Shown here: in pieces, positions 3,001 through 63,687 of the stretch
Layout of the letters: every line of letters begins with the position of its first letter
How positions within the stretch are numbered: the stretch's first letter is position 1
Assembly: GCA_002423385.1 (NCBI GenBank)
Contig: DIVV01000217.1
Coordinates: forward strand, 8,781-72,780
Origin: a bacterium UBP16_UBA6123
Lineage (GTDB): Bacteria > Muiribacteriota > UBA9980
Length of the DNA: 64,000 bases
Direction: 5' to 3'
The notes under the pieces: model-generated
Databases searched by the model: none
Seen by the model: the letters and a program-made list of their open reading frames with translations, nothing else
Told to the model about the DNA's origin: nothing
Position numbers and translations under genes: made by a program

Positions 3001-6000
3001 GACGGCTAATGCTGAAATTAAAAAAAGCACGGGCTCCTTTACCAGCATTAACACATATTACACGAATCTCGATTCAAACTACATAAGAAGCACCATAGAT
3101 GTAAGTGATAACGGTAATCCTGCTTCAAATTTCAATACGGCGGCTAAATACAGGGTTATAATTTGTGAAAACGCCGATCCCGGAACCGGCGTATTGTTTG
3201 ACACAGCGCATCCGATGGCGGGTTCGGTTTTTGATTCCAACTGGATATCCTATGCAACCTTTAACGCCGGTTATAATTTCAATTTTGCCGCTAAGACCGA
3301 AACTTATTATAAATGGCGCGTTTACACTAAAGATAACGTCGGCAATGTTAATTATTCAACCGTTAAGGATGTTTACTACGATATACAAAAACCTTCCGAA
3401 CCTTCGCTAACATTGAAAGTTGCAGATAAACATTACGCTGATCCTTCCGATTTTTACTGGACTAAAAATAATCAGCCCGGCTTTACCGGCACCGTCGTTA
3501 CCGATACGCCAGTCGGGCTTGACGGTTCAGGGCTTCATTCCGCCGGCGCTTACAGGTTTTTGATCTACACCACGCAGACGCCTAAACCTGCTGACGAAGA
3601 TTCATTTACGCTTGTTCCGGCCAATGTGGCTTACGATACAGGTTGGGCGGCTTCTACGACCGATTTCGCCCCGGCCGCCGCTCTGGCTAACGGCACTTAT
3701 TACTGCCGCATCTATGTCCGCGATAACGCGGGTAATATAAATTATTCAAACAATACAAATGCGGCCGAAAGCTGTAATGCTAACGGTGATCTTATAATTA
3801 AAGTTGACGTCACCGCGCCTTCGATTAGTGCCAATAATTTTTCGCCGCATGCCTGGGTTGATTCTATTAATCCAACTTTCGGACAGGTAGTCGATAATTC
3901 ACCTACTTCAGAGCAGCAAAAAGCGGGTTCCGAAGTTACCAGCAGCGATGGCGCCGGTTCTGGCATCAAATCATACAGAATACAGGCTGGTGTTGGTTTC
4001 AGCGCGTGGGATATCGGCGTTGAATATGATTCCGGCATTATTTTAACCGGGTTGACTACTATGCCAGCGCGTACAACCAATGTTAACGGCGGCGACGCCG
4101 GGTTTATAACTAAAACTTTCGCCGACGGCAATTTAGTTAAATGGATGGTACGCATTGAAGATAATGTAGGCAATGTTCGGTATACACCTACACCCACACC
4201 GTTGGTTATGACCTTCGGTATCGAAGATCAAAATCCTAACGCAGTCACGCATAATTTCCCCGGAAACGATCTGTGGATAAGCAAAAATACATTCGATGTC
4301 AAATGGAACCCGGGTACCGATGTCGGAACTGCCGGAGCCGGCCATTATATCGTTTATGTTGCCAGTGCTGATTTTGCGGGCAGCGATCCGGCCGGCTGGA
4401 GTATTATACATAATTCGGCTAATTTAATTCCGACCGTGAATAATCCCGAATTATGGACCGTTCCGGTTATGGCGCTGGCGACTTATGAAGGCAAGACCAT
4501 TTACTGGAAGGTAAGATTTTACGATAAAGCGCTCAACTATACCGATTCAGCCACGACAACTTTTAAAATCGATATGACCAAACCGACCGTTGCGCTCAAT
4601 GCGCCCACCGTGTCCGGTGCCGAACAGGCGCCGCAGTCTATAACCGGCACTTCACACTGGGTGAATACACGCACGCCTAAACTTAACTGGAGCGCGCAGA
4701 CCGATCCTGACGGCGCGGCGGGCCAGCCGGGTTCGGGTTGGCAGGTTGCCGGTCAGTACGGCGCGACCTACGCTTATAAACTTGAGATATCGACCACTAA
4801 TTTCGGCGCTATTTTCTGGGATAACGGCGTTCTGGGCACCAATCCGCTCGATGTTAATCACATCATTCCCGCCGGCGCTTCGCTCGTCGATAGCACATTT
4901 TACTATTATCGCGTCCGCTTTTTCGATAAAGGCGGCCAGGCCGAAGCCATAGACGGCAATTTCAATACGACTCCCGTATGGAGCGTTAAATGCGATATAA
5001 CTAAACCGCAAAAACCAGTTCTCGTATGGCCGGGCGATGCGGCCGGAACCGAATGGATAAGCGCGGCGAAGCCGCTTCTGCACTGGAGAGGCGGCGACGA
5101 TAACGATGGCCTTGCGACTCCGAAACCCGGTATCGGCACCAAGGAAGTAATCGTGCAGATCGCTACAGATGCGGCGTTTGCCGATCTCGTTTTAAACAAA
5201 ACTATTAATTATACCGGCACGCCTGCCGCGCTTGACACCTATCAGATGGCCGCAGTCGATCCATCGCTTGCTGAAAGCACTTATTATTACTGGCGCGTTG
5301 CCGTTAAAGATAAATTCCTTCAGCAGTCCGACTGGTCCGATGTGTTCAGGTTCCGATGCGATTTCACGAAGCCGACGGCCGCCGTTCTCGACGGGCCCGG
5401 TAATATATATCCGCCTGGCAATACCAGCGAGGACGCATACTGGATAAATACACGAACTCCTACATTTAAGTGGACGCCGCCCGTCGATGTTGACGTAAGC
5501 GGCCAGTGCGCCGGTATGGCAAGCGTCGAAATACAGATTTCGAATAATGTTACCGTCGTAGGGAGCGATGTTACATTTAACTCTTATTTTTACACGAAGA
5601 AACTTATGAAGGGTGAACTGGCTTACGAAAATGGCGAATTCACCCTGCCCGACCCGAATAAGCTATCCGGTAACGGACCTTATTACTGGCGCGTTATTTC
5701 TTACGATAAAGCCAATAATCCAGTCGCTAATAAAACTATTTCCGATGTTTTCGTTTTCAGCATGGACTTCGTGCCGCCTGATTATTTTTCGATCAATCAC
5801 GAATACGCCGATAGCGGCAGCGTTAATTTAACTGTGCTCAGAATAAGGCCTGTGGGCCCGAATAAAACTACCGGTGACGCCTACGACGAAGTCGCCGATT
5901 TGTTTACGGGCGTCGCGACCGCCGGTATCAGTAAAATTCAATACTGGTACAGAAAACATCCTTCTACGACATGGACGATGGCCGGCTGGACCGATGAAGT

Positions 6001-9000
6001 TAATATGGTGTATGAAGTAGTGCTTCCCGATAGCGGTGTTTATGATATCGGCGCTAAATTATTCGATCGCTCCGGCAACGTCAGAGGCTGGGATTATGTG
6101 AATGACGGCCAGGATAACCAGGGTTTCTTTTCTTCATATCATTATAGAGCAGGTGCGAGCGACACTAATGAACTACGCCTGCGCCGTATCGATCAGTCGA
6201 TATTTAATGATTGGGGCAATGAATCACCGACTTCGTTATTGCCGGCCGACGGTGGTTATAGTAACTGGATCGTTCCGCCTAATGATTTTATAGTCCACTG
6301 GAGCGGGCAGTATTATGTTTCTACGGCGGGTATCCATACTTTCCGCACAACGACCGACGATGGCGTCAGGTTTTATATCAACGACACAATTAGAATCAAT
6401 AAGTGGATAGACCAGGGGCCTACTCCTTATACAACCGATCCGAATTTATCCGTCGGCTGGCATAAACTCGATATGTATTATTATGAAAAAGGCGGCGGCG
6501 CCACCGCTAAACTCGAAGTTGACCTGCCCGGCGGCGGCACTACATATTTACCGGTTCAGATACCTGATGTCCGGTCGCAAAACCCCGACGCTATCATAAC
6601 CGACTTAAGGGTTGACGCACAGCCGCCTGAAAGTAAATTTCCTTCTCTTCTTTCCTATACCAGCGATGATATATTCAATGTCGCCTGGAAGGTCGAGGAT
6701 ACATTTGAAATGACCACCGATAATAAGTTTAAGCGTAATTTCGAAGACCTCGGCCTCGGCGGGTTTAAAAATAAAACCGCGAATTGCGCCGATATTAAAA
6801 ATACCGATGGTGTGGGGCTGGCGCGCGCTTATGATAATAAGCGCTGCTTAGTAGTTAAAAAAGGCACCAATAATTCGGTAATAGATTTTTTTACGCCAGT
6901 GGATGGGTCAACTACTTATAACCTTTCAACCTATAAGTATGTAAGTTTCGCATACTGTACTTCCGGTCCTGTCAAATTTGATTTAATCGCAACTATTACG
7001 GTTAACAACAGGACGGGTTTGTATGTTATTCAAACCTGCACCGATCCCGTAATCATTAATAAAACTGTCGCCGAAAATCCGGGTGTCGGCCTCGGCGTGG
7101 CGCCATGGGGACTTGCTGAATTTTCAGGTAAAACACCTAATTTTAGAAATGATGAAAACTGGCATACCGTTACTATTAATCTGTACGAACAGATCAAACT
7201 CAAATACGGCAAAGTTTCCGCCGACAGCGCTCTGCTTCGCTCCGTTTATTTTTACGGCGAAAATCCTTCCGATGATGCCGCGATATATATAGATAATTTC
7301 TCTCTGTCGAGTAAAGGTATGGCGCAATCTAATGTAGATTTCAGAGACGGCTGGCATGGTAAATGGACGCGCTGGGAAGACGATACCTATTCAAATACCA
7401 TAACTTCATATAATCGCGATTTTGAAGAGGCGCAGGACGGCTCCGTTTATTTCTTCCGCGGCCGCGCTATCGATAATGCGGGTAATATGGAACCGGCAAC
7501 AACCGCCGCCGATGAAAATAATTACAACCCGCCGCGAATTTCAATAGTTAAATCGCCGCCCGATCCGCCTACTAACTTAAGATGGCAGGCGCTTGACGCT
7601 GACGGTGTCACATGGGTGGAGGCTCGTAATTCAAATGCCAATCTTACCGACCCGAAGAACCGTAAAATAAGGGCGGCATGGGACCCGCCTAAAGATCCGT
7701 CAGGAATTAATGACTATTACATCCAGGTTGCCACGAGTGAAACTTTCACAACTAAAAGTTTGGTGAGCGCTCATACTAAATGGCTTACGAAAGCCGCGCC
7801 GGTTTTTGTTATTAATGACAGCTTCAATTCGGGTATCGATGCAGCTACCTGGCCGGTTAACGAACCGCCGTTTGTCAATAATAAAGGAGCCGCTTATTTT
7901 GACGGCGCTAATAAAGATAATAAAAAGTTAATATCTAAAGAATTTAACCTGGCATCGTATAACGACTACAGTTACGCGGCTTTTGAATTTAACGCATATT
8001 TCGACTCGGAAGACGCTAATGATTATATGCAGGTCGGAATTCAGTATTACGATAATAACACATCATCATGGGTTACCGATAAGTTTCTGGAGCTTAAACA
8101 GACCACGCAAAAATGGAAATTTAAATCTTACGTTATAAGCCATTACATAGGCAAGCGTATTAAAATATATGTCAATGTAAAAGCCGATGCTAATTCGCCA
8201 AACCCTAAGGCCGGTATCGATAATGTTAAAATATGGGTTGAGAAAAATTGCTATGAATTTACAGGTATCGACCAGACTATATATTACTTCAGGCTTCTAT
8301 CTAAAAATAACGCCGGATTCAGCAAACCGACGACTATCACCGATAGCTACCGCTCGTATTTTTCGACCGCGAAGGGCGACACTATAGGCACTAACGAAAC
8401 AAGCGTATCGCCCGCCAACTGGAACAGCCTTAATATTACAAACGATAAATTAGTAAGCGACTGGGGCTGGGGCACTACCGAGTTAATGACAGTTTATAAG
8501 GAAACTAATATATTTCAGGACAGTTTTGAAACGGGTATAAAGGCCGCAAACTGGCCGACTGTTGGCTCCCACTTTAAATATAACAATTCAATTGGTTGTG
8601 TTGAAAATACTACTGAAATTAAAACTGGTGGCGCAGCCGATAGCATACTGACTGAGGAAATGATATCTAAAGAATTTAGTCTTGCAGGCTATGACCGGGC
8701 TACAATGGAATGTAATGTTGCATATAAATTTGCTGACGTTAATACTCCTAACGACAGGGCGACGATCAGTGTTGAATATAAAGATGGCACTAACTGGATT
8801 ATAGACCAGTCATCTTATTATGATAAAAACACATCTGATCAGTTCAGTGGTGCATCTCCCAATTTAACAGATTGGCGTTCCGTGTCTTTAAATTTATCAA
8901 GTTCCTTAGGTAAAACCGCCGTACGAATCCGTATAATCGTTACCGCAAATAAAACTGCTCTTAATCCCATGGTTTATCTTGACAACTTCATGCTTAACGC

Positions 9001-44997: not shown

Positions 44998-45579
44998 TTG
45001 ATCGAGGTTTTTTTCGAAATCGGGCATGGCGGGATGTCCGCTCCATGCTATTTTCTGGTCGGCGCGGCGACCATCAGGCAAATAGCCGGGGCCGCCGGCG
45101 TCGCGGTAGGCACCATATATGTTTATTTTAAAAACAAAGACGATATCCTTCATGAATTATTAAATCGGCACAAAGAAGAGCATTACTTGCTTTTTGATAA
45201 GATGTCGGTTTTAAAGCCCGAAAAAGCGATCAAATTTTTTTATGAAGACCGGTTTAAATCTCTTTCAAAACTCAATAATTTAATAAGCGTTTTCATGTTT
45301 GAAGTAACGCGGGATAAAAAACTCAGAGGAATAATTCACAAAAAAATATTTGAAACGATTAACGAAAAAATGAAAACTTTCTTTAAAACCGCTATCGAAA
45401 AAAAGAAGATCCGCGATTTTAAAGATATCGAAGTTTTAAGCGTTTTAATGCTGAGCATAGTCTCCTCGATTGTAAGCTGGAAAGAATGCGTTTTTTCAAA
45501 ACAACTCAAAGGCATAACCTACGAACGCTTCGCGGACGCCGTCACGGATCTTGCGATGAACGGCCTGGCCTTAAAGTAA
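44998..45579 (+). CDS. TetR/AcrR-family transcriptional regulator
   Basis: HTH IRQIAGAAGVAVGTIYVYFKNKDDILHELL matches the TetR_N consensus (…IAkaaGVskGTlYhYFksKeeLl). TTG start at 44998. The alternative ATG at 45034 gives a product with a shortened helix-1. Precedes the efflux operon. Confidence 0.6.
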   Translation: MIEVFFEIGHGGMSAPCYFLVGAATIRQIAGAAGVAVGTIYVYFKNKDDILHELLNRHKEEHYLLFDKMSVLKPEKAIKFFYEDRFKSLSKLNNLISVFMFEVTRDKKLRGIIHKKIFETINEKMKTFFKTAIEKKKIRDFKDIEVLSVLMLSIVSSIVSWKECVFSKQLKGITYERFADAVTDLAMNGLALK

Positions 45580-45586
45580 ATCTGGA

Positions 45587-45814
45587 ATGGAGCGTAAAAA
45601 TATGAAATTAGAAATAATCGGAAATCCAATAGATAAAATATTCGACATATTAAAAACTAACGAAAAAGTGAGCACGCTGAAGTGTTACAGCGGAAAAATA
45701 AATATCAATCTCTGCGACGACGTAAGCCGCGAAACTCTTCACAATATTAAAAATTCAATAATAACCAGATTGTCCGGCGCTGTCAAGAACTATATAATGA
45801 AGGTGGTCAATTAA
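45587..45814 (+). CDS. Small hypothetical protein (75 aa), translationally coupled to downstream TolC-like gene
   Basis: Stop TAA overlaps the ATG of the next gene (TAATG at 45812-45816). No motif recognised. Confidence 0.35.
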   Translation: MERKNMKLEIIGNPIDKIFDILKTNEKVSTLKCYSGKININLCDDVSRETLHNIKNSIITRLSGAVKNYIMKVVN

Positions 45815-47364
45815 TGGAAAGAAAAACTGGTAATTTTAAAAAAAGCGAAAAAGCGTCTTCGCCGCTTTACTCATTATTGCTCTACGGCACGCTGCTTGCG
45901 GCATTTTCGCCCGCGGCGGCGCAGTGCGCGACGAATTCGACGGCGCAGGTTGAATTGAAACCGTCCGAAATAATATTAAGCCTGCTGAATAAAAGTTCTG
46001 AATCAGTCGAATTAAGAGCGCGGAGGGCCAGGTTAAAACTGACGGGAAAAAACGGTGAAACTGCCGTAGTTAAAGCTGATGTAATTAAAACCGGCGAAGA
46101 AAAATTACCCGCGATGCCGTCGAAAACATCCGAAATCACAACCGGCAACCAGTTAAGTTTAACCGACTGCGTAAGTATAGCGCTAAAAACTAACCCGCAA
46201 ATTTTAGAATCTCTGTTTAGTATAAACACCTACAAATATAAACTCGAGCAATCGAAAGCGTCGTTAAGACCGCAGACTTCCGCCGGAGCGAAAGGCGGCT
46301 GGCAGGGAAGCGATGCCCAGACGCGCGCCAGCGAAACGTCTTCGCTTTATTCGAGCCGTGGCGCCAGTTTATCTTATTCACAATTAATTTATGACGGCGG
46401 CAAGACGAAAAGCGGAATAGAAGCCGCTGGAACTAATCTTGAAATTCAGGAATTAAACCATAAAAAACTCCTGATGGATATTTTCTTGAAAATATGCGAA
46501 AATTATTATTCATTAGTCACTTCGCTCAGACTCGAAAAAATCGCTTTGCAGGCATACGAGGGTTCTATTTTACATCAGAACCTCGCGGAAGCCAATTTTA
46601 ACGTCGGAATTTCTCCAAAAACCGATTTTATAAGAGCGCAAACGAATACTTTCGAAAAAAAATACAGCCTCATCGCGGCGCAAAACGCCAATAAAAAATC
46701 GAAGCTCGCGCTTAACTACACACTTGGGCGCGCCGGTTACGATATCGAAGTGATAGATTCTCTTACATGCGACACCATAGGAATAGATTTAGAAAGCTCC
46801 ATAAACAAAGCGCTTCTTTCGCGCAGCGAAATCGAAGCCGCCAAAAAAGGCATCGAAGTTTATAAACTTCAAATCAGGCAGATAAAAGCCGAAAAATCCC
46901 CGCAGATTTCACTCGGGGCGAACGCGGGCCTGGATTTCGACAACTCCGCCAATAAAAGCGAACGCTCTTCCTACTCGTTTACTACAAACATTTCGATGCC
47001 TATTACCAACGGATACATTACCGAAAATAAAGTAAGCGAGCTCGAAGAAAAAATAAGGGCCGAAGAACAAAAATTACAGCAACTGATCTTAACTATTAAA
47101 TACGACGTAAACCAGGCATATTTAAATCTTTTCGAATCTTACGAACAAATAGGCGCGGCCGCTAAAAACGTCGAGTACGCCGATTTAACTTTAAAACTGA
47201 CCGACGAACAGTACAAAGTCGGACTGGCCACCATGCTCGATTTGATCGACGCTGAACTCGCCTATAACCGCGCCATGACCAATCACATACAATCGCAGGG
47301 AAATTTTTTGACGGCTAAATGCAAGTTCAGAAGAAATATCGGCGACGAGGAGTTTTACAGATGA
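45814..47364 (+). CDS. TolC-family outer-membrane efflux protein
   Basis: Signal peptide (…LLYGTLLAAFSPAAAQ), two-repeat OEP-like architecture with …LSLTDCVSIALKTNPQI… and coiled-coil segments. 516 aa. Confidence 0.8.
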   Translation: MERKTGNFKKSEKASSPLYSLLLYGTLLAAFSPAAAQCATNSTAQVELKPSEIILSLLNKSSESVELRARRARLKLTGKNGETAVVKADVIKTGEEKLPAMPSKTSEITTGNQLSLTDCVSIALKTNPQILESLFSINTYKYKLEQSKASLRPQTSAGAKGGWQGSDAQTRASETSSLYSSRGASLSYSQLIYDGGKTKSGIEAAGTNLEIQELNHKKLLMDIFLKICENYYSLVTSLRLEKIALQAYEGSILHQNLAEANFNVGISPKTDFIRAQTNTFEKKYSLIAAQNANKKSKLALNYTLGRAGYDIEVIDSLTCDTIGIDLESSINKALLSRSEIEAAKKGIEVYKLQIRQIKAEKSPQISLGANAGLDFDNSANKSERSSYSFTTNISMPITNGYITENKVSELEEKIRAEEQKLQQLILTIKYDVNQAYLNLFESYEQIGAAAKNVEYADLTLKLTDEQYKVGLATMLDLIDAELAYNRAMTNHIQSQGNFLTAKCKFRRNIGDEEFYR

Positions 47365-48890
47365 AACGATTTCTTTCCATCAGGTATATAACCGCTTTTG
47401 CCGCGATCGCGATTTTACTTTATTTTATCAATCCATTCGGCGGCAGCAAAACAAGCGCGGGCGACGCCGCCGATAAAACCGCGCAAATTACCAGCGGCAC
47501 TTTCGAAATTATCGTTTCCTGCGCCGGAACGGTAACCGCGCTTTCGAGCGTCGATGTAAAATCGCGAGTGGGCGGCACCGTCGAGTATCTGAAATTAATG
47601 GAAGGCGATTATGTCAATAAAAACGACCTTATCGCCCACATCGATAAGAGAAATATACTTTTAAAGGTGAAGCAGAATGAAACCGATCTTAAATCAGCGC
47701 AGGCGCAGCTCGAAAAATCTAAAATTTCATTCGAGATAGATAAAAAAAACTACGCCAACGAATTTAAACGCGCCGAAGCCAACGCCGATTTGAGTTATTC
47801 AAACCTGCGGTTGCTCCAGAAAGGAAGCCGGCCGGAAGAGCTGTCCCAGGCCGAAGCGCAGATCGATTTAGCGCGCGCCAATTACGATAACAGCCGCAAA
47901 AATTTCAACCGCCACAAAGAACTTTATAATAAAAACTTAGTGTCGCAATCGGCGATGGACAGCGCCAGGGCCGCAAGCGACGTGGCCGCCGCTCAGTTAA
48001 AAAGCGCCGAGGAAAAATTCAATTTATTAAAACAGGGCTACCAGAGTGAAGAAATTCAAAAAGCTAACTTCCAGTATGAAGTTTCACTTTGCTCGGTCGA
48101 CGAAGCTAAATATAAAATCGAATCTTTAAAAATACGCGAGCAGGAAATTAAAAATCTGGAATCGATAGTCGAAAAATACGATATAATCCATCAGGACTCG
48201 CTCGAGCAGCTTAAAGACACGACTGTTTTAGCGCCTATTTCCGGCGTGGTAACTCAAAAATGGGTTGATGAAGGCGGAATTATAACCTCCGGCATCTCCT
48301 CTGTAACCTCCGGCACTAATATACTGACGCTATCGGATATGTCTGAAATAAAAATAAAAGCCAACGTAGATGAAACCGATATCCATAAATTATCGCATAA
48401 TTTAGGGGCGCGCGTTAAATTAGACGCCTATCAGAAGAAGGTATTCAAAGCAAAATTATCGAGCATCGGGCCGCGCGTATATCTAAAGGACAACGTGCCG
48501 GTAATCGATATAACCCTGGATCTTCTCGAAGGCAGCGACGAAGTAAAAGTGGGAATGACCGCGGACGCCGAAATAATAATAGCCAGTGAAACTGACGCGA
48601 AACTCATACCCAACGATTCGATAATCGAACGCGGCGGCAAACATTTTGTAAGATTATTAAACGGAAATGAAAGCCAGAAACCTGAATTACGGCCTGTCAA
48701 AATAGGATTGACCAACGGCGAAAAAACCGTTTTAATAAGCGGGCTCAATGAAAATGAACGCTTCTATACGGGCGAAGCGCTTAAGGCGATGAAAGAAAGC
48801 ACGGCAAAAGCCCAGCCGGGAATGCCGCTTTTAGGCTCCCCTCCAGGCGCCCGCAGCACACGGAGCTCAGGCAGCAGCAGCCGCAAATAA
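47361..48890 (+). CDS. HlyD/MacA-family periplasmic adaptor (membrane fusion protein)
   Basis: ATG at 47361 overlaps the TolC-like stop (ATGA). N-terminal TM, long coiled-coil (…LKSAQAQLEKSKISFEIDKKNY…), beta-barrel/lipoyl motifs (LAPISGVVTQKWVDEGG). Confidence 0.8.
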   Translation: MKRFLSIRYITAFAAIAILLYFINPFGGSKTSAGDAADKTAQITSGTFEIIVSCAGTVTALSSVDVKSRVGGTVEYLKLMEGDYVNKNDLIAHIDKRNILLKVKQNETDLKSAQAQLEKSKISFEIDKKNYANEFKRAEANADLSYSNLRLLQKGSRPEELSQAEAQIDLARANYDNSRKNFNRHKELYNKNLVSQSAMDSARAASDVAAAQLKSAEEKFNLLKQGYQSEEIQKANFQYEVSLCSVDEAKYKIESLKIREQEIKNLESIVEKYDIIHQDSLEQLKDTTVLAPISGVVTQKWVDEGGIITSGISSVTSGTNILTLSDMSEIKIKANVDETDIHKLSHNLGARVKLDAYQKKVFKAKLSSIGPRVYLKDNVPVIDITLDLLEGSDEVKVGMTADAEIIIASETDAKLIPNDSIIERGGKHFVRLLNGNESQKPELRPVKIGLTNGEKTVLISGLNENERFYTGEALKAMKESTAKAQPGMPLLGSPPGARSTRSSGSSSRK

Positions 48891-48936
48891 TAGATAAATT
48901 ACTTATCAATCTTAAAAACAAGCGATGTGAAACGAT

Positions 48937-49710
48937 ATGACAGATGAAAACAAACCGATCATAGAAATAAAAGGATTGACCAAGATATACGATACCGGCA
49001 AAATTAAGGTAAACGCGCTTAACGGCGTGGACTTTTCAATAAAAGAATGCGAGCTTATAGCTATAATGGGGCCTTCAGGTTCCGGCAAATCTACTATGAT
49101 GAACGTTCTCGGCTGCCTGGATAAACCTACCGACGGCACGTATCACTTAGACGGCACCGACGTTTCCACCATGAGCGAAGACGCTCTCGCCGAAATCAGA
49201 AATCAAAAGATAGGCTTCGTTTTTCAAACATTTAACCTGCTTTCCCGCACCAGCGCGCTTAAAAACGTGGAACTTCCAATGGTTTACGCGAAAATACCGG
49301 CGGCCGAACGCGAGGAACGGGCCAAAAAAGCGCTGAGCGCCGTCGGTCTCGAAGAACGAATGTATCACATGCCTAACGAACTTTCGGGCGGGCAGCAGCA
49401 GAGAGTCGCCATAGCAAGAGCGCTTGTCAACGATCCGAAGATAATACTCGCCGACGAGCCGACCGGCAACTTAGATTCGCGTTCATCGGAAGAAATTTTA
49501 TTAATATTCCAGCAGCTTAACCGCGCCGGCAAAACTATAGTTATCGTAACGCACGAACCCGATATTGCACAGCATTGCAAGCGCAACGTGGTTTTCAAAG
49601 ACGGTGAAATCGTAACCGATAAAAAAGTCGAGCATATTCTCGACGCGAAAGCCGTGCTGGAAGAAATTAACAAGAAAAGCCATCATCTTCACCCGCATCT
49701 AAATCAATAA
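48937..49710 (+). CDS. ABC transporter ATP-binding protein, MacB/LolD-type
   Basis: Walker [10 protein letters not shown], signature [15 protein letters not shown], Walker [12 protein letters not shown]. Confidence 0.9.
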
Positions 49711-49721
49711 AGGACGTTAAA

Positions 49722-50936
49722 ATGGATTTTTTCGAATTAGTCAAATTATCGCTGATAAGCCTTAACGCCAATAAAATGCGTTCCGCGTTAACGATGCTCG
49801 GCGTTATAATAGGCGTAGCCTCCGTAGTCGCCATGATATCCATCGGCGAAGGCGCCAAAGGCCTTATCACCAAATCTATCGAAGATATGGGAACCAACCT
49901 GCTTTTTGTAATGCCCGGTCAGATGAAAGTCGGCGGGGGCGGCCACGGCATGGGTTCCATCCAGACGTTAACCTTTGAAGACTGCCGGGAGATCGAAAAA
50001 AACTGTCCATCGGTCGTCGGCTGCGCGCCGGAAATATCAAAATCGGCTAAAATAAAGGCCGGCAACCAGAATACCGTAACGCAGGTAGTCGGAACCAGCG
50101 AACGCTACCCCGAAGTTAGAAATACCAAAATAGCCCAGGGCCGATATTTTACATCCTTAGAGCTGCACAATCAGAAAAAAGTAGCCGTGCTCGGACAGAG
50201 CGTTGTAGATAACATTTTTTTCAATATAGACCCTATCGGAAAAGATATTTTAATCAACCGCATTTATTTTACCGTTATAGGCGTACTCGAAGCCAAAGGC
50301 CAATCGGGATTCACCAACGTTGACGACATGATAATGGTTCCGGTCACTACCTTTCAAAAAAGATTGTTCGGCCTCGACTACCTTCGAAATATCAGTGTAC
50401 AGGTAAAAAGCGCGGAGCTTATGGATTCAGCGGAGCAGGAAGTCGGCGAATTATTAAGAAAACGCCATAGAATTTTAAATCCAGACGACGACGACTTTAC
50501 CATCAGAAAACAAACCGAAATGCTCAACCGCATGAGCGATATTACATCCGCTTTTACGATGCTGCTCGGCGGCATCGCCTTTATATCACTTTTAGTCGGC
50601 GGCATAGGCATTATGAATATAATGCTCGTATCGGTCACCGAACGAACGCGCGAAATCGGCTTAAGAAAAGCCATAGGCGCAAAAAAAGCCGATATTTTAA
50701 AGCAATTTCTCATTGAATCGATCGTTTTATGCGTTATGGGCGGCCTTATCGGAATTTTATCCGGCATAGGAATGTCTTATTTAATAGCGAAATTCGGCAA
50801 CTGGAACACTTCAGTTTCGACCGCCTCGATATTGCTTTCATTCGGCTTTTCAATAGCCGTCGGGCTGTTTTTCGGAATTTATCCGGCCAACAAAGCCTCC
50901 GGGTTGAACTGCGTCGAAGCTCTCAGATACGAATAA
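49722..50936 (+). CDS. ABC transporter permease, FtsX/MacB-type
   Basis: N-terminal TM, MacB periplasmic domain and C-terminal FtsX-like 3-TM bundle (…GGIGIMNIMLVSVTERTREIGLRKAIGAKKADIL…). Confidence 0.85.
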   Translation: MDFFELVKLSLISLNANKMRSALTMLGVIIGVASVVAMISIGEGAKGLITKSIEDMGTNLLFVMPGQMKVGGGGHGMGSIQTLTFEDCREIEKNCPSVVGCAPEISKSAKIKAGNQNTVTQVVGTSERYPEVRNTKIAQGRYFTSLELHNQKKVAVLGQSVVDNIFFNIDPIGKDILINRIYFTVIGVLEAKGQSGFTNVDDMIMVPVTTFQKRLFGLDYLRNISVQVKSAELMDSAEQEVGELLRKRHRILNPDDDDFTIRKQTEMLNRMSDITSAFTMLLGGIAFISLLVGGIGIMNIMLVSVTERTREIGLRKAIGAKKADILKQFLIESIVLCVMGGLIGILSGIGMSYLIAKFGNWNTSVSTASILLSFGFSIAVGLFFGIYPANKASGLNCVEALRYE

Positions 50937-52365: not shown

Positions 52366-52893
52366 ATGTCGAATAAATGTCCGCGCTGTTGGGGCGCGCT
52401 TGAACTGCTTGATATCGACGGCGTTAAAATAGACAGATGCGGTTCATGCCGCGGAATTTTTCTTGATAAGTACGAACTCAACCGGCTTAACGCCTTAAAC
52501 AGCGAAGCGGCCGAGTGTTTAAACGACGGCGCTGCCGGCCATTCTACCATTCAAACGCCGGATGCGTCAAAAAAAATTAACTGCCTGCGTTGCTCGAGCG
52601 TAATGCAAACCGTTAATTTTTCATATACTTCAGGAATTTTAATCGATCACTGCCCCGCGTGCGAATCGGTATGGCTCGATAACGGCGAACTCGCCAAAAT
52701 TTTAGAATTTTTAAAAGCGAGCGAATCTATCAGCGAAGAAGAAAGCGCTTCATATCAAAACACTTTAAACGAAATTAAAGACAGCGCCAACAAACAGAAA
52801 GAAAGCGGTTTCCGCTCCATTTCATCCGGCGGCAAAATGGGTTCCATAGTTAATTTCGTTTATAAAATGATAAGCAAGGTTAGCGGCGAATAG
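52366..52893 (+). CDS. Tandem zinc-ribbon (zf-TFIIB-like) domain protein
   Basis: Two Cys4 ribbons: CPRCWGALELLDIDGVKIDRCGSCRG and CLRCSSVMQTVNF…IDHCPACES. Confidence 0.6.
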   Translation: MSNKCPRCWGALELLDIDGVKIDRCGSCRGIFLDKYELNRLNALNSEAAECLNDGAAGHSTIQTPDASKKINCLRCSSVMQTVNFSYTSGILIDHCPACESVWLDNGELAKILEFLKASESISEEESASYQNTLNEIKDSANKQKESGFRSISSGGKMGSIVNFVYKMISKVSGE

Positions 52894-56547: not shown

Positions 56548-57594
56548 ATGCTCATTATTTTAAAGAGCGGCGCGGCCGAAAAAGACATCGAGCGCCTTAC
56601 CGGCAATATTAAGCAAAGCGGATATTCCTACTCGCGAGTACGCGAGGAAGGCGTCGAGATGATAGAAGTCGAAGGCGTTCCCGCTTATTTTCAGCTCGAT
56701 TATTTCAAATCTTTTGAATCGGTCAAAAAAGTGGTGACAAGCTCTGGATTCAGCGAAAAAGTTTACCGCTCCAGCCATAAAAGCGATACCCGCATTAAAG
56801 TAAACGGCCGCACTATCGGCGGCGGCAATATAGAGCTCATAGCAGGCCCCTGTTCGGTAGAAAGCTACGAACAGACCGAACGCATAGCCGAAAAGCTCTC
56901 TAAAATGGGCGTTAAATTATTCCGGGGCGGCGCGTATAAGCCGCGCACCTCGCCGTACAGTTTTCAGGGCCTTAACGAAAACGGCCTTAAAATACTCGGA
57001 CGCATAGCAAAAAAATATAACCTCGCCATTATAACGGAGCTCTTAGACATCAGAAATATAGACGCCGTAAGCGAATACGCCGATATTATCCAGATCGGAA
57101 CGCGCAATGCAAGTAATTACGCGCTTTTAAAAGAAGCCGGTAAATTAAAAAAACCGGTGCTTTTAAAAAGAGGCGTCAGTTCAACGATCAAAGAATTTCT
57201 TCTTTCCGCCGAATATATCATGTGTCAGGGTAATTCAAATATCATTTTATGCGAGCGCGGCGTTCGAACTTTTGAAACCGCCGCTTACAGAACGAGTCTG
57301 GATATAACCGCGGTATCGATAATTAAAGAAATATCGCATCTTCCGATAATAGTCGATCCCTCGCACTCCGCGGGCGCATGGAACCTGGTAGAAAGCCTGT
57401 CGCTTGCCTCTATAGCCGCCGGCGCCGACGGAATAATGATCGAAGTCCACGACAGGCCTCACGAAGCGTTATCAGATGCCGGACAATCTCTCATGCCTCA
57501 AAAATTAAAACCTTTGATTCAAAAAGCCTCAAAAATAGCGCAATGTTTTAATAAAACATTCATGAGCGACGCAAACGGCATTAAGAAAAAATAA
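56548..57594 (+). CDS. aroF: 3-deoxy-7-phosphoheptulonate (DAHP) synthase, type I-beta with N-terminal regulatory domain
   Basis: LIAGPCSVESYEQT…KLFRGGAYKPRTSPYSFQGL…ILCERGVRTFE…LPIIVDPSHSAG…GIMIEVH. Near-collinear with Thermotoga-type DAHPS/KDO8PS-family enzymes. ~70-aa N-terminal extension. Confidence 0.9.
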   Translation: MLIILKSGAAEKDIERLTGNIKQSGYSYSRVREEGVEMIEVEGVPAYFQLDYFKSFESVKKVVTSSGFSEKVYRSSHKSDTRIKVNGRTIGGGNIELIAGPCSVESYEQTERIAEKLSKMGVKLFRGGAYKPRTSPYSFQGLNENGLKILGRIAKKYNLAIITELLDIRNIDAVSEYADIIQIGTRNASNYALLKEAGKLKKPVLLKRGVSSTIKEFLLSAEYIMCQGNSNIILCERGVRTFETAAYRTSLDITAVSIIKEISHLPIIVDPSHSAGAWNLVESLSLASIAAGADGIMIEVHDRPHEALSDAGQSLMPQKLKPLIQKASKIAQCFNKTFMSDANGIKKK

Positions 57595-57596
57595 AA

Positions 57597-57665
57597 AACC
57601 GCCGATAAGAATACATGGCGGAATAAATATAAAAACCGCGCCGCCTTAGTTTTAATTATCTATAA
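57597..57665 (+). terminator. Two consecutive GC hairpins + T-run after aroF (terminator candidate)
   Basis: CCGCC-gataagaatacat-GGCGG, then GGCGG-aataaatataaaaa-CCGCGCCGCC followed by ttagtttt. Confidence 0.45.
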
Positions 57666-57728
57666 ACGATGATTCTGATAAGTATTTAATTAGCGGTTCA
57701 AATTTTAAATATATGAAAGCTGGAATTT

Positions 57729-58541
57729 ATGTCTTCAAATGAAGTATGCTTTCTCGAAGAAATAGCAATATCGAATATGTACGGCACCGAACTTGAAAAA
57801 AAGATCGTCGCTAATTTAATCAGCTATTTAATCAACGACCCCAATAATAGCGAAAAAATCGTCGAGCTGGCCGTTATAATCGAAGAGATAAAAAGACGCG
57901 AAATAACTCACATGGATTGGAACTGCTGCTTTTGCGACAAATGCGAACGCTATCATAACTGCCGCATTAAATGGTACCGCGGCGAGCGGCAGATGACTCA
58001 ATACTGCTGCAGTTACTGTCAGTACTTCGATAAATGCCTGGCAAAATTCCAGAAACTCGAAAAATCCAGACGGATAGTATCGGAAATATTTATGATCAAT
58101 ATCAACGGAAACGACGAACAGGTTGAAATCGCCCGTAATATTATCAATAACATAACGGATCTGGACTGCCTTATAAAATTATCGGTGCTCGCCGAAGAAA
58201 TTCGCGCCAGTGAAATTGTACGCATCAAATGGAACTGCTGCACCAAATGCGCCAGACACGACACCTGCCGTATTAAATGGCAGCGCGGCGAAACCTCGAC
58301 ACCCGATCAATGCTGCAGTTACTGTCAGAACTACAAAGAATGCCTCGAAAAATATCAAAAACAGGCCGCTAAAGATATCAGAATTTTAGAATCGGTGTTT
58401 TTGATCATTATGTACGGCAATAAAGAAGAAATCGATATATTCGATTCGATGGCCGATAAATTCTACTCGCCTAAAATCATAATAAAACTTGCCGCCATGG
58501 CGGAAAAAATTAAGGCGCGCACTTTTTTTACCGCCGGCTAA
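57729..58541 (+). CDS. Cysteine-rich tandem-repeat protein of unknown function (two 8-Cys modules)
   Basis: Two ~95-aa repeats each carrying WNCC.(C/K)C.(R/K)(Y/H)..CRIKW.RGE……(Y/Q)CCSYCQ(Y/N)(F/Y).(K/E)CL.K(F/Y)QK, preceded by a conserved helical segment (…LAVIIEEIKRREI… / …LSVLAEEIRASEI…). A third repeat lacking Cys forms the C-terminus. Confidence 0.55.
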   Translation: MSSNEVCFLEEIAISNMYGTELEKKIVANLISYLINDPNNSEKIVELAVIIEEIKRREITHMDWNCCFCDKCERYHNCRIKWYRGERQMTQYCCSYCQYFDKCLAKFQKLEKSRRIVSEIFMININGNDEQVEIARNIINNITDLDCLIKLSVLAEEIRASEIVRIKWNCCTKCARHDTCRIKWQRGETSTPDQCCSYCQNYKECLEKYQKQAAKDIRILESVFLIIMYGNKEEIDIFDSMADKFYSPKIIIKLAAMAEKIKARTFFTAG

Positions 58542-59278
58542 CTTTCCAGAAATCTCGACTTTTTAATACATAATTTATGGCCGGCATAGCGCGCGAGCGT
58601 TTGCAAAGTCGAAAGGCCATAGACGACGCTGTTTTTAAAACTTATCGACGAGGCATCATCCATATATTTACACGGGCAGGATACTTCGCCTATTTTAAAA
58701 TCAAAATAAACCGCCTGAACTAAAAATTCCTGGTCAAATACGAAATTATCCGAATTTTTGGCGAAAGGCAGAGTTTCCAGCACTTTACGGCTGTAGGCGC
58801 GGTATCCGGTATGATATTCTGAAAGATTAAGCCCCAGCACCTTATTTTCACAAAAAGTCAAAAATTTATTAGCCATATATTTATAAACGGGCATTCCGCC
58901 GGGCAGCGCGCTTCCATCGAGCATGCGCGAGCCGAGAACTACATCCGCCGTTCCGTTGATTATCGGCCTTACCATCTTAGCCATTATCTTCGGATCGTAT
59001 TGATAATCGGGATGAAGCATTACCACGATTTCCGCGCCCTGATCCAGAGCCATCTGATAACATGTTTTTTGATTGGCGCCGTAACCTTTGTTAACCGGAT
59101 GTTCGAATATCGTAAGCCCCAGATCGCGAGCCACTCTTACCGTCTGGTCGTGACTTTTATCATCGACTAAGATTATTTTTTTTACGATGTCCTTCGGAAT
59201 ATCGTTATAAGTCTGAATAAGCGTCCGTTCCGCGTTGTAGGCGGGCATTACCACAAAAATATCGGGTATTTTAGACAT
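58538..59278 (-). CDS. Family 2 glycosyltransferase (polyprenol-phosphate glycosyltransferase, DPM1/GtrB-like)
   Basis: VVMPAYNAERTL, VDDKSHDQT, D.D-like HPDYQYDP, …VVLGSRML…. Confidence 0.85.
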   Translation of the reverse strand: MSKIPDIFVVMPAYNAERTLIQTYNDIPKDIVKKIILVDDKSHDQTVRVARDLGLTIFEHPVNKGYGANQKTCYQMALDQGAEIVVMLHPDYQYDPKIMAKMVRPIINGTADVVLGSRMLDGSALPGGMPVYKYMANKFLTFCENKVLGLNLSEYHTGYRAYSRKVLETLPFAKNSDNFVFDQEFLVQAVYFDFKIGEVSCPCKYMDDASSISFKNSVVYGLSTLQTLARYAGHKLCIKKSRFLES

Positions 59279-61805: not shown

Positions 61806-62759
61806 TCAATAATTTTTTTCGTAAACTTTTTTATCGTCGATCATAACGACGATCTTCATTCCGCCTTCGGCGATCAGATTGAGCGTGACCTTATCGCCGG
61901 CTTTATTACTCATATTATAAAGCACACTATCTGAATCGGCATTAATTTTCAAAATTTTAACGTTTACCGTTTCAGATTTTGACGGCGGAACTACGAATGT
62001 AAAATCAAGAGGCTGAGATGCGGCCGGTGAATTCGAAAAACTCTTATCGGCCGGATCGATTTTTAAGGTTATTGTATAATTGACCAGCGTTGGATTGTCT
62101 ATATCGACTTTAGCCGCATGGTTCAAATCGGCGCGATATATGGGAAGGGCATCGATTAATGTTTCAATAAATTTAGCGACGGTATTTAAGGGACGGTTAG
62201 CCGAACTGTATGCCGTGCCGACTATTTTAAAAAGCGTAGGATCTGAGCCATCGCGCTTGATCTTTTCGAGCGTAATTTTCTGGCCGGCGAAGTTATTATG
62301 AAAGTGTTTTAATATAACGTCTTCTAAATATAGCTTAACCTGCTGCTCGGTAACTAAAGTTTTTACGGCTTTTTCATCCCGCACAGCATTTTCGGCTTCA
62401 TCCGCGGCGGCATTAAAATTAATAATTTTAGCGCCTTTTTTATTTTGCGGCTTTTTTTTCTCCGAAGCCGGCTGAGTTTCAACGGCCGGAGCGCTTAAAT
62501 CACTCAGACAGTAAGGGCAGACGCTGTTGATCTCGTCCACCTGCTTTTTACAATGCTGGCAGGCGATCATCGCCGCAAAAAGCGATGTAGTCGAAAGCAA
62601 AACTGCCGCCAGAACCACAAAGACAGCAACTCTTAAATTAAGCGCGCCGCTAAAAATACCGGCGGGTTTTAAAACCGTTGGCCCTCCAGTAGTTTTAGTC
62701 ACTTTATTACGGATTATTTTTATTTTGATTATGTTGTTGATGAGGTTTTTTATGTCCAT
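61806..62759 (-). CDS. Membrane-anchored hypothetical protein with Cys4 zinc-ribbon
   Basis: TM segment VAVFVVLAAVLLSTTSLFAAMIA followed by CQHCKKQVDEINSVCPYC. The 5' end overlaps the upstream gene by ~50 nt, so the true start is probably downstream of the annotated one. Confidence 0.4.
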   Translation of the reverse strand: MDIKNLINNIIKIKIIRNKVTKTTGGPTVLKPAGIFSGALNLRVAVFVVLAAVLLSTTSLFAAMIACQHCKKQVDEINSVCPYCLSDLSAPAVETQPASEKKKPQNKKGAKIINFNAAADEAENAVRDEKAVKTLVTEQQVKLYLEDVILKHFHNNFAGQKITLEKIKRDGSDPTLFKIVGTAYSSANRPLNTVAKFIETLIDALPIYRADLNHAAKVDIDNPTLVNYTITLKIDPADKSFSNSPAASQPLDFTFVVPPSKSETVNVKILKINADSDSVLYNMSNKAGDKVTLNLIAEGGMKIVVMIDDKKVYEKNY

Positions 62760-63687
62760 AAAATCCAGGCCTCCCGTTTTGTTTTACATTTTTTACATTT
62801 TTAGAAACATTAGGAACCGTATTTTTTTTATGCTTTTCAATTTTTTGAATTATTTCATTTTCGAGAACGCTGATATAATCGTCGTTGATATTATAAGTTT
62901 CGATCATATTTTTAGTGACGCCGACACCGCGGCTGATAAGCATCGACGCGAGCTGTTCGATAGTTAAAAGCATTATCGGATAGGGCGAATTAGCCTTTAT
63001 ATATTCGTTGACGTCCGCTTCATATTCTGAAAATAATATAATAGCGCCCATATTGAATTTATGCGTGGTCATTATTTTTATGAGTTCCTCGGCGTTTTTA
63101 ACGCCGTATTTTCGCTGGGCCGGCCATCTTCTGATAACTACGAGCATATTGACGTTGCTTGCAAACTGTTGAAAATTTATGGCGTAGTCGATTCCGCCGT
63201 CGGTGCGCCGGTTGACGACCGTATATTTAGCGAAGCCAAGCTCGCGCAGAAGGTTTTCAACTAGCCGCTCGAAAACTAAAAATGGAAGTTTATTCAATTT
63301 TTCAATAAACTGAGCTTTTATTTTAATATAATTCGCGTTCAAATAATCCTGAAGGCAGTCTAACTGTGGCGCGGCAGCTTCTATGGAGGCGGGCGCCGGC
63401 ACTGGAATCGCTTCGGCAATTATAGCCGGAGCTTCTTCGACCTTAGGCTCATTATAATTTTTAAGGCCTATCAAACCGTTATTCAATTTTAAAAAATCGG
63501 TATGAATTTTTAACTTTTCCGCTTTTCTTACTTCGAGCGCTAAACGCGTTACTATAACGGTTTCAAGCGTCTGCGTGCCTTTTCTTTCGATTAATTTTTC
63601 GCTGCTGATAGTTCTTGCTATTTCTTTAAAATGCATGGGTTTTTTATTTTTAATCAATACATGTTTTATAGCTTCTAATAATTCCAT
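62707..63687 (-). CDS. Mrr-like restriction endonuclease domain protein with N-terminal HARE-HTH/winged-helix
   Basis: N-term ELLEAIKHVLIKNKKPMHFKEIARTI (HARE-HTH-like). C-term FERLVENLLRELGFAKYTVVNRRTDGGIDYAINF… matches Mrr_cat (…DgGiD…). AAGGAG RBS 9 nt upstream. Confidence 0.7.
   Translation of the reverse strand: MELLEAIKHVLIKNKKPMHFKEIARTISSEKLIERKGTQTLETVIVTRLALEVRKAEKLKIHTDFLKLNNGLIGLKNYNEPKVEEAPAIIAEAIPVPAPASIEAAAPQLDCLQDYLNANYIKIKAQFIEKLNKLPFLVFERLVENLLRELGFAKYTVVNRRTDGGIDYAINFQQFASNVNMLVVIRRWPAQRKYGVKNAEELIKIMTTHKFNMGAIILFSEYEADVNEYIKANSPYPIMLLTIEQLASMLISRGVGVTKNMIETYNINDDYISVLENEIIQKIEKHKKNTVPNVSKNVKNVKQNGRPGFYGHKKPHQQHNQNKNNP

Follow-up and report, generated by a model that had tools for sequence, protein, structure and literature searches.

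Cys8, a duplicated eight-cysteine domain and putative metal-thiolate module of uncultivated bacteria

Results

Gene structure and coding evidence

The DNA analysed here (the window) is a 64-kb stretch of contig DIVV01000217.1 from the bacterium UBP16_UBA6123. We found that it carries, at 57729..58541 on the + strand, a complete open reading frame (ORF) for a protein of 270 aa with 19 cysteines. The protein contains two modules in which a helical subdomain is followed by a compact cysteine-rich domain, here named Cys8. An earlier sequence-only reading had placed an ORF with Cys-rich tandem repeats at this position, and both its coordinates and the peptides it quoted were right. The gene is composed as follows, based on the ORF list, the orthologs and the ratio of nonsynonymous to synonymous substitution (dN/dS):

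57729..58541, + strand: complete ORF, two helical-plus-Cys8 modules and a third, Cys-less helical unit
57750..57917, + strand: helical subdomain 1 (aa 8-63), net charge -6, with conserved YG-T-x-E-E and ELAVIIEEIKRRE elements
57918..58055, + strand: Cys8 domain 1 (aa 64-109), W-N-CC-F-C-DK-C-x5-C-RIKWYRGE-x7-CC-SY-C-x5-C
58056..58229, + strand: helical subdomain 2 (aa 110-167), three helices in the AlphaFold2 module model
58230..58361, + strand: Cys8 domain 2 (aa 168-211), canonical CC-x2-C-x5-C-x14-CC-x2-C-x5-C core
58362..58538, + strand: helical subdomain 3 (aa 212-270), without a Cys8 domain

The start codon and the N-terminus are kept across the orthologs, and the reading frame and start are retained in orthologs that are 39-96% identical. 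In comparison with the closest ortholog (locus L011, 88% amino acid identity), dN/dS is 0.116 for the whole gene and 0.041 for the Cys regions. These values are too low for a spurious ORF, a possibility that we therefore rejected; the ORF is a genuine coding gene under strong purifying selection and not a chance pattern. The CC-x2-C-x5-C half-motif has no other copy in the six-frame translation of the 64 kb.

No transmembrane segment was found in the 270-aa protein (maximum Kyte-Doolittle value 0.99) and its N-terminus has no signal-like feature. The protein is predicted to be soluble and cytoplasmic, which would rule out structural disulfides, and a disulfide-rich secreted protein was rejected because signal peptide and transmembrane segment are both missing. 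A role in phage biology or defence was rejected as well, since scans with PADLOC and PHROGs matched nothing.

Repeat architecture and the Cys8 core

Within the ORF, DNA repeat families are spaced by 306-312 nt. The sequence-only reading had described two repeats of about 95 aa with eight cysteines each, an amphipathic helix in front of each Cys region and a third, Cys-less repeat at the C-terminus. Two modules are indeed present (aa 8-112 and aa 113-216; 40% identity, E=6e-26), but they span 102-104 aa, and eight cysteines are found in module 2 only; module 1 has nine, the extra one coming from a 2-aa insertion (CCFCDKC). The part preceding each Cys region is conserved and helical as described, but it is a three-helix subdomain of about 55 aa and not a single helix. 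The third repeat was correctly recognised: the C-terminal unit (aa 217-270) has no cysteine, and its similarity to module 2 is limited to the helical half (33%, E=7e-10). Beyond the stop codon, a six-frame scan gave no remnant Cys motif.

Each module thus consists of an acidic helical subdomain followed by a 36-residue Cys8 core. The helical subdomain has a mean net charge of -5.5 across the family and shares the elements F-x-E-E-I-F-I-V-N-L-Y-G-T-x-E-E and L-I-E-E-I-K-R-R. The core, with a mean net charge of +1.6, follows the profile W-x-CC-x-[RK]-C-Q-x-[FYW]-x-[TNS]-C-x-[ILV]-[KN]-W-x-R-G-E-[RK]-G-x5-CC-[SP]-x-C-x2-[YF]-x-[ED]-C and is itself an internal duplication, in which two copies of CC-x2-C-x2-aromatic-x2-C are joined by 14 residues and both halves have the aromatic residue at C+3.

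In an alignment of 41 relatives found by hidden Markov model (HMM) searches, seven of the cysteines never vary; the exception is the second position of the first CC pair, where Cys is conserved in at least 90% of the sequences. The module alignment gives the same picture. Among 47 domain instances none of the eight varies, a count that is partly circular since the instances were picked by a regular expression for the Cys pattern. C-P-x-C knuckles are frequent, with proline following C2 in 10 and C6 in 8 of the 47 domains. Natural variation of the cysteines is limited to the first half of the core, where module 1 of the Wallbacteria proteins has the 2-aa insertion with its additional Cys. The cysteines are the dominant constraint on the domain.

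Predicted structure

In AlphaFold2 runs with the full protein and 14 orthologs, only the helices were folded, with a predicted local distance difference test score (pLDDT) of 70-88, whereas the Cys regions (35-47) stayed without a fold. A run at the level of the module, for which a 28-sequence module alignment was used, resulted in a model with a mean pLDDT of 94.3 and a predicted TM-score of 0.84, and all five models reached at least 93.5. The order of elements is three helices (residues 2-14, 17-27 and 33-51), a knuckle (CC-x2-C), a helix (69-76), the second knuckle and a last helix (90-103), so that the core appears as a compact pair of knuckles and helices. A β-bridge joins the residues directly preceding the two CC pairs, which is what a pseudo-twofold arrangement of the Cys8 halves would give. 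Foldseek searches with this model found no neighbour in the PDB or BFVD at E<=0.001 (best TM-score 0.39).

Search for a described family

The 270-aa protein has no Pfam match at E<=10, and the Cys8 region of the 41 relatives is unmatched at E<=0.01. When the 47 Cys8 cores were searched in isolation at E<=10, only scattered noise was obtained, including sporadic weak matches to Zn_ribbon_Elf1 in three of them (best E=0.035). NCBIfam gave noise far under its cut-offs; a match to TscT (18.8 bits, where the cut-off is 100) and a match to NIPM/CHCH in the PDB (E=0.04) were rejected as noise from the Cys composition. Sequence and profile searches of the PDB yielded nothing meaningful. In the literature, searches for CCX2CX5C and the 'CCXXC motif' led to synthetic peptides or eukaryotic secreted proteins only and to no natural CCX2CX5C motif.

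By these sequence and fold searches, Cys8 is a domain family without described sequence relatives or PDB fold relatives, as the sequence-only reading had supposed; the HMM searches it had proposed brought up no described family of known function, and its exclusion of ferredoxin, rubredoxin, zinc-ribbon and metallothionein spacings holds. Cys8 would nevertheless join a familiar class, that of small Cys-rich modules that bind metal. The wider family, the internal duplication of the Cys region and the tight linkage to a DAHP synthase gene, described below, had all been missed.

Distribution and domain architectures

An indexed search found 15 close homologs, and a word-indexed search with a 46-aa domain profile found three proteins only. 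When 1.84 billion cluster representatives were searched exhaustively with an HMM, 60 proteins came up at E<=1e-3. The module is the evolutionary unit and is present in one to three copies per protein. The form with several modules is found in seven metagenome-assembled genomes (MAGs; GTDB species genomes), for example Candidatus Wallbacteria GWC2_49_35 and bacterium ADurb.Bin243, and the proteins with two or three modules belong to the Wallbacteria; judged by this distribution, a genome of Wallbacteria type would be the most likely source of the window. P0102 is an independent two-module protein. About 30 proteins of 100-170 aa have a single module, among others in Candidatus Rifleibacterium and Wallbacteria HGW-1. 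A metagenome scan for the codon skeleton of the motif (8 x TGY) was swamped by (TGY)n repeats and added at least one true member, at locus L089.

The core is also found without the helical part, either as a bare domain of 46-67 aa (P0073 is a complete gene of 65 aa) or in tandem (P0045 and P0046). Moreover, it is fused to larger proteins. PEP-CTERM-type (TIGR03015-like) ATPases carry it at the C-terminus, behind a variable linker; a DUF4912 protein from a glycogen (GH57) cluster and a TPR histidine kinase of 1599 aa, whose gene is followed by one for a sigma-54 activator, carry it at the N-terminus. Found by itself as well as N- or C-terminally in unrelated proteins, the core is an autonomous, mobile domain, with the module of helical part and core as a second-order unit.

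Where the window protein ends, five orthologs (P0003, P0005, P0008, P0009 and P0011) have a third complete Cys8 core and P0007 has a degenerate one. Since the window protein has no third core, the terminal core seems dispensable and has probably been lost more than once.

The DAHP synthase locus

The Cys8 gene is flanked by the following features:

56548..57594, + strand: DAHP synthase, ferredoxin-like regulatory domain and DAHP_synth_1
57595..57728: AT-rich spacer of 134 nt between the DAHP synthase gene and the Cys8 gene
58538..59278, - strand: GT2 glycosyltransferase gene, convergent, followed by PMT/GT39 and YkuD genes

A type I-beta DAHP synthase gene lies directly 5' of the Cys8 gene in every multi-module locus examined (the window and eight orthologous loci), with gaps of about 20-135 nt. 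This adjacency persists at 43% identity (L004), where the distal flanks are rearranged. The spacer in the window is AT-rich (GC 0.28-0.31), in line with the sequence-only reading, and we detected in it no sigma-54 promoter, no strong sigma-70 promoter and no terminator. In the orthologs, however, the gene starts about 20-65 nt past the stop codon of the DAHP synthase, a distance from which co-transcription of the two genes appears more probable than an independent transcription unit. Directly before the ATG of the Cys8 gene, the sequence GAAAGC[TG]GG is conserved. No Rfam element was found anywhere in the window.

The claimed convergence with a GT2/GT39 envelope cluster was borne out, and the orthologous loci show the same convergence on GT2, PMT/GT39 and YkuD genes. 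The TAA that ends the Cys8 gene on the + strand shares 2 nt (58539-58540) with the TAG that ends the GT2 gene on the - strand, likewise in L001-L003, so that there is no room for a terminator and the transcripts must overlap. In the loci examined, we saw no evidence of a mechanistic tie between the Cys8 protein and either the synthesis of aromatic amino acids or the envelope genes next to it.

Further genes of the window are mentioned here as separate observations. Between the genes for the YkuD L,D-transpeptidase and for an Mrr/HARE-HTH protein lies a 317-aa ORF without Pfam match (61806-62759, - strand), and L001-L003 have a gene of like size and position, also without Pfam matches. The neighbouring gene (62707-63687, - strand) encodes a HARE-HTH and Mrr_cat restriction-endonuclease-like protein, shares about 50 nt with the ORF before it and is syntenic in L001-L003. 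At 44998-50936 (+ strand), a TetR gene is followed by genes of a tripartite efflux cluster (OEP/TolC-like, HlyD, ABC ATPase and MacB/FtsX), whose outer-membrane factor implies a diderm envelope for the lineage. A Zn_ribbon_TFIIB (PF13453) gene (52366-52893, + strand) precedes the Cys8 gene by about 5 kb and is also present in the orthologous loci; in the unrelated locus L027, a larger protein of the PF13453 family (5328-6260) and a ComFB gene lie immediately upstream of the single-module gene P0103.

Gene contexts of distant members

Four sigma-54 (-24/-12) promoters of near-consensus sequence sit 32-88 nt upstream of distant Cys8 genes: TGGCACCTAACTTGCT in L017 (521-536), TGGCATGTAAATTGCA in L022 (6968-6983), TGGCACGGTTATTGCT in L025 (6949-6964) and AGGCATGGAAAATGCT in L026 (6174-6189). 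Such promoters are thus found less than 100 nt upstream in four of nine independent contexts, with a background of 0.018 per kb for the strict pattern over all fetched loci. Genes for NtrC-type activators adjoin the Cys8 genes in L017, L022 and L025. From this arrangement we infer that the single-module form in distant relatives would be an inducible gene controlled by sigma-54 and an NtrC-type activator.

Directly 3' of the Cys8 gene, the unrelated loci L022 (7353-7889, 178 aa) and L025 (7337-7795, 152 aa) have a common small gene, whose products are 29% identical over 133 aa (E=5e-8) and show a sub-threshold CheW-like match. It may be an operon partner of the single-module Cys8 gene; the window has no homolog of it. 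Apart from this pair, the uncharacterised genes flanking the loci are unrelated to each other. For several proteins that are fused to Cys8 or encoded beside it (P0040, P0052, P0060, P0063, P0062, L022 5473-6843 and L025 5460-6836), the best NCBIfam matches, all sub-threshold, are the four accessory components of XrtA/PEP-CTERM systems, namely the TIGR03015 ATPase, the PrsT TPR protein, the PrsK kinase and the PrsR regulator. These matches may reflect a real link to exopolysaccharide and exosortase regulation or merely generic family similarity.

Two further neighbours were seen. In L014, a gene for a 548-aa protein (4216-5862, - strand), with an MshEN-type cyclic di-GMP-binding N-terminus, a long Pro-rich linker and a DnaA-like AAA+ core but apparently without the DnaA DNA-binding domain, is convergent to the bare 65-aa Cys8 gene P0073. 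HIT-family hydrolase genes adjoin single-module Cys8 genes or lie two genes away from them in two unrelated loci (L089 1458-1964 and L022 4943-5440), which may be a coincidence.

Discussion

Our data lead us to favour, tentatively and with somewhat less than even confidence, a soluble cytoplasmic protein of Cys8 modules with two metal centres per core, preferably Zn(Cys)4 sites that may include a redox switch, and with a role in sensing or interaction. Metal binding by Cys8 is strongly suggested because the cysteines are conserved, the protein is predicted to be cytoplasmic and the fold is a compact set of knuckles and helices. The internal duplication, the β-bridge and the arrangement of knuckle and helix cap point to two centres, related by a pseudo-twofold axis, around which each core would fold. 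Ligation would be of a 3+1 type, where C2, C3 and C4 of one half (the C-x2-C knuckle and the helix-capping Cys) and C1 of the other half bind each centre. We picture the centres as tetrathiolate Zn(II) sites, which would have a structural role or else form a zinc-thiolate redox switch. Zn(Cys)4 is favoured since C-P-x-C knuckles are common, the bare domains are very small and the domain behaves as a terminal add-on; a bare domain of 65 aa seems very small for burying two cubane clusters. The core charge of +1.6 would roughly balance that of anionic metal-thiolate centres. The probable role of the domain is that of a sensor or interaction module: the core could serve as a rigid knob, of which the window protein would have two, and some orthologs three, on helical spacers, giving a multivalent adaptor or sensor made together with the DAHP synthase.

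Several observations weigh against this interpretation. C2 is missing in module 1 of P0013 and P0014, module 1 of P0010 reads C-x2-C-x2-C, and P0032 and P0036 have C-x2-CC; such a variable set of ligands in the first half is hard to reconcile with one rigid site model. The window copy and its close orthologs have neither a sigma-54 promoter nor an adjacent NtrC-type gene. Outside the Wallbacteria clade, the gene contexts are heterogeneous and no universal partner gene is found, and the linkage to the DAHP synthase could be inherited synteny within one lineage. All identified hosts are from uncultivated, apparently anaerobic lineages. Together with these hosts, the well-documented use of C-x2-C-x5-C as a [4Fe-4S] motif makes an iron-sulfur domain a serious alternative.

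As an iron-sulfur domain, which we consider rather less probable but well worth weighing, the two halves of the core would each supply a C-x2-C-x5-C triad and take the fourth ligand from the opposite half. Variants are one cluster with spare thiols or Fe(Cys)4 sites like those of rubredoxin and desulforedoxin, and the protein could be an array of mini-ferredoxins or a sensor of redox state, O2 or NO. The motif is an established [4Fe-4S] triad: it forms the three-ligand core in the sites of Wbl/WhiD (PMC7363131), NUBP1 (PMC10108433) and RseC (PMC11729352) and in the auxiliary clusters of SPASM proteins (PMC10452713). Like a half of Cys8, the Wbl/WhiB proteins, the loop of EndoIII/MutY, the N-terminus of NUBP1, RseC and SPASM combine the triad with an available fourth Cys. 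The motif C-x(n)-C-x2-C-x5-C is formally present twice per Cys8 core, and a motif match alone does not mean homology. The pseudo-twofold symmetry of the eight cysteines, the apparently anaerobic Wallbacteria and Riflebacteria hosts, whose MAGs appear to come from anaerobes of digester and groundwater sources, the position at the N-terminal input of a histidine kinase, which would suit a redox sensor, and a rubrerythrin gene in a Riflebacteria locus are all in favour of it. However, there is no Pfam match to Fer4, Whib, CCG or radical-SAM/SPASM, even at E<=10, the ligand positions in the first half vary, and C-P-x-C knuckles are more typical of mononuclear sites. Moreover, the bare domain has only 46-67 aa, and to our knowledge a di-cluster protein of this length would be the smallest known, judged by the sizes of ferredoxins. 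A bolder form, in which Cys8 would be a minimal iron-sulfur fold of about 40 residues with two clusters, or with a non-cubane cluster held by the vicinal Cys-Cys pairs, is in our view unlikely; two or three such folds arrayed on helical spacers would act as an electron wire or as a sensor of O2, NO or redox state, with the output going to the two-component and sigma-54 signalling of uncultivated anaerobic phyla.

The known iron-sulfur proteins also differ from Cys8 in detail. Wbl proteins (PF02467) are known only from Actinobacteria and actinophages and have a C-terminal G[VI]WGG turn and a basic tail. By inspection, Cys8 proteins have neither turn nor tail; their hosts are not Actinobacteria, the Whib profile does not match, and the motif is present twice per 36 residues with vicinal CC pairs. 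Clostridial 2x[4Fe-4S] ferredoxins resemble Cys8 in having eight cysteines in about 40 residues, an internal duplication and a cross-ligation of the proposed 3+1 kind, but their spacing is C-x2-C-x2-C-x3-C-P instead of CC-x2-C-x5-C, no Fer4 match is found, and Cys8 is smaller and has another predicted secondary structure. In SPASM/Twitch domains (C-x2-C-x5-C-x3-C) the triad is followed by an x3-C that Cys8 does not have, and neither Radical_SAM nor SPASM matches. The spacing of HdrB-type CCG domains (PF02754), C-x31-39-CC-x35-36-C-x2-C, differs as well, again without a Pfam match.

Among zinc and mononuclear iron sites, the vicinal Cys-Cys pair has a precedent in desulforedoxin, where such a pair is among the metal ligands. 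Cys8 shares frequent C-[P]-x-C knuckles with rubredoxin and zinc ribbons, but each half has only one C-x2-C knuckle and takes its other candidate ligands from the CC pair and the helix N-cap. The β-hairpin ribbon is absent from the model, which is made of helix and coil with a single β-bridge, and no Pfam or PDB match was found. The fungal Zn2Cys6 (Gal4-type) domain has two C-x2-C-x(5-6)-C halves, which end at or near a short helix and are related by a pseudo-twofold axis around a metal-thiolate core. Cys8 is likewise a small domain of tandem halves with pseudo-twofold character, but it is bacterial, has eight cysteines against six, includes vicinal CC pairs and separates its halves by 14 residues where the fungal domain has about 6, and its spacing is unlike C-x2-C-x6-C-x5-12-C-x2-C-x6-8-C; there is no match to Zn_clus (PF00172) and DNA binding is not indicated. 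Hsp33 and the RsrA/ZAS anti-sigma factors are cytoplasmic proteins whose Cys-rich Zn sites couple thiol oxidation to a signalling output. The analogy with these redox switches is one of function only: Cys8 is also found at the input of a signalling protein, a histidine kinase, but it has neither H-x3-C-x2-C nor C-x-C...C-x2-C and no sequence similarity to them.

The remaining explanations appear to us improbable to different degrees. Cys8 proteins might buffer, detoxify or deliver metals (Zn, Cd or Cu) in the cytoplasm like metallothioneins, with a metal-responsive sigma-54 two-component induction loosely like that of ZraSR-ZraP. The Cys density (19 in 270 aa, two or three Cys8 units per protein), the single-module genes directly 3' of genes for a histidine kinase and an NtrC-type regulator and behind sigma-54 promoters, ZraR among the high-scoring, sub-threshold NCBIfam matches of the adjacent regulators, and a cation-efflux gene in L027 would be consistent with such a role, which we regard as improbable. 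The regulators match AtoC, NtrC and PrsR equally well or better than ZraR, fusions to a kinase, ATPases and DUF4912 do not fit, and the domain has a rigid spacing, conserved W, R-G-E and aromatic residues and a confidently predicted fold, whereas metallothioneins have few or no aromatic residues and tolerate variable spacing. In addition to the W, the conserved F and Y distinguish it from metallothioneins including the bacterial SmtA/BmtA, to which no Pfam match was found.

Slightly more doubtful again is a tandem array of zinc fingers that binds nucleic acid as a regulator of transcription or RNA, with the basic K-W-x-R-G-E-[RK] helix between the knuckles as the reading element. The core is basic, its central helix carries a K, a W and an R that are conserved, the modules follow each other in tandem and regulator genes are often close by. 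However, the core charge is merely +1.6 and, with eight thiolates holding two divalent metals, would turn negative. The helical subdomain for its part is strongly acidic (-5.5), no helix-turn-helix or known DNA-binding model in Pfam matched the protein or its 41 relatives, and no target repeats were seen. We consider it very improbable that the protein is a multi-core precursor of a ribosomally made and post-translationally modified peptide (RiPP), where the helical part would be the leader and the Cys-rich part the core peptide of a maturation by radical-SAM or other enzymes. The repetition of leader-like and Cys-rich segments and a radical SAM gene about 4 kb upstream in a Riflebacteria locus might be taken to suggest it, but a maturase, protease or exporter is not adjacent in the window or in most loci (no maturase adjoins in the window or its orthologous loci, in contrast to SCIFF and other Cys-rich RiPP precursors). 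Furthermore, some large enzymes have Cys8 as their N- or C-terminal part, and its confident globular fold and the conserved W, RGE and aromatic core residues do not fit a precursor peptide.

The importance of Cys8 is limited by its rarity, with about 60 cluster representatives in 1.84 billion, by its confinement so far to uncultivated bacteria and by the many uncharacterised Cys-rich domains already known. If the metal-thiolate reading is true, a very compact domain would be added to the catalogue, with eight cysteines in 36 residues, a duplicated architecture and vicinal Cys pairs. Candidate phyla without cultured members have apparently recruited the domain repeatedly, as a stand-alone protein, in tandem arrays and attached to kinases and ATPases as an input or appendage. 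The natural protein of 65 aa and the confident AlphaFold2 fold make it an easy experimental target and possibly a minimal scaffold for metal sites. Finally, the link of distant members to sigma-54 and NtrC-type activators gives a concrete route to the inducing signal.

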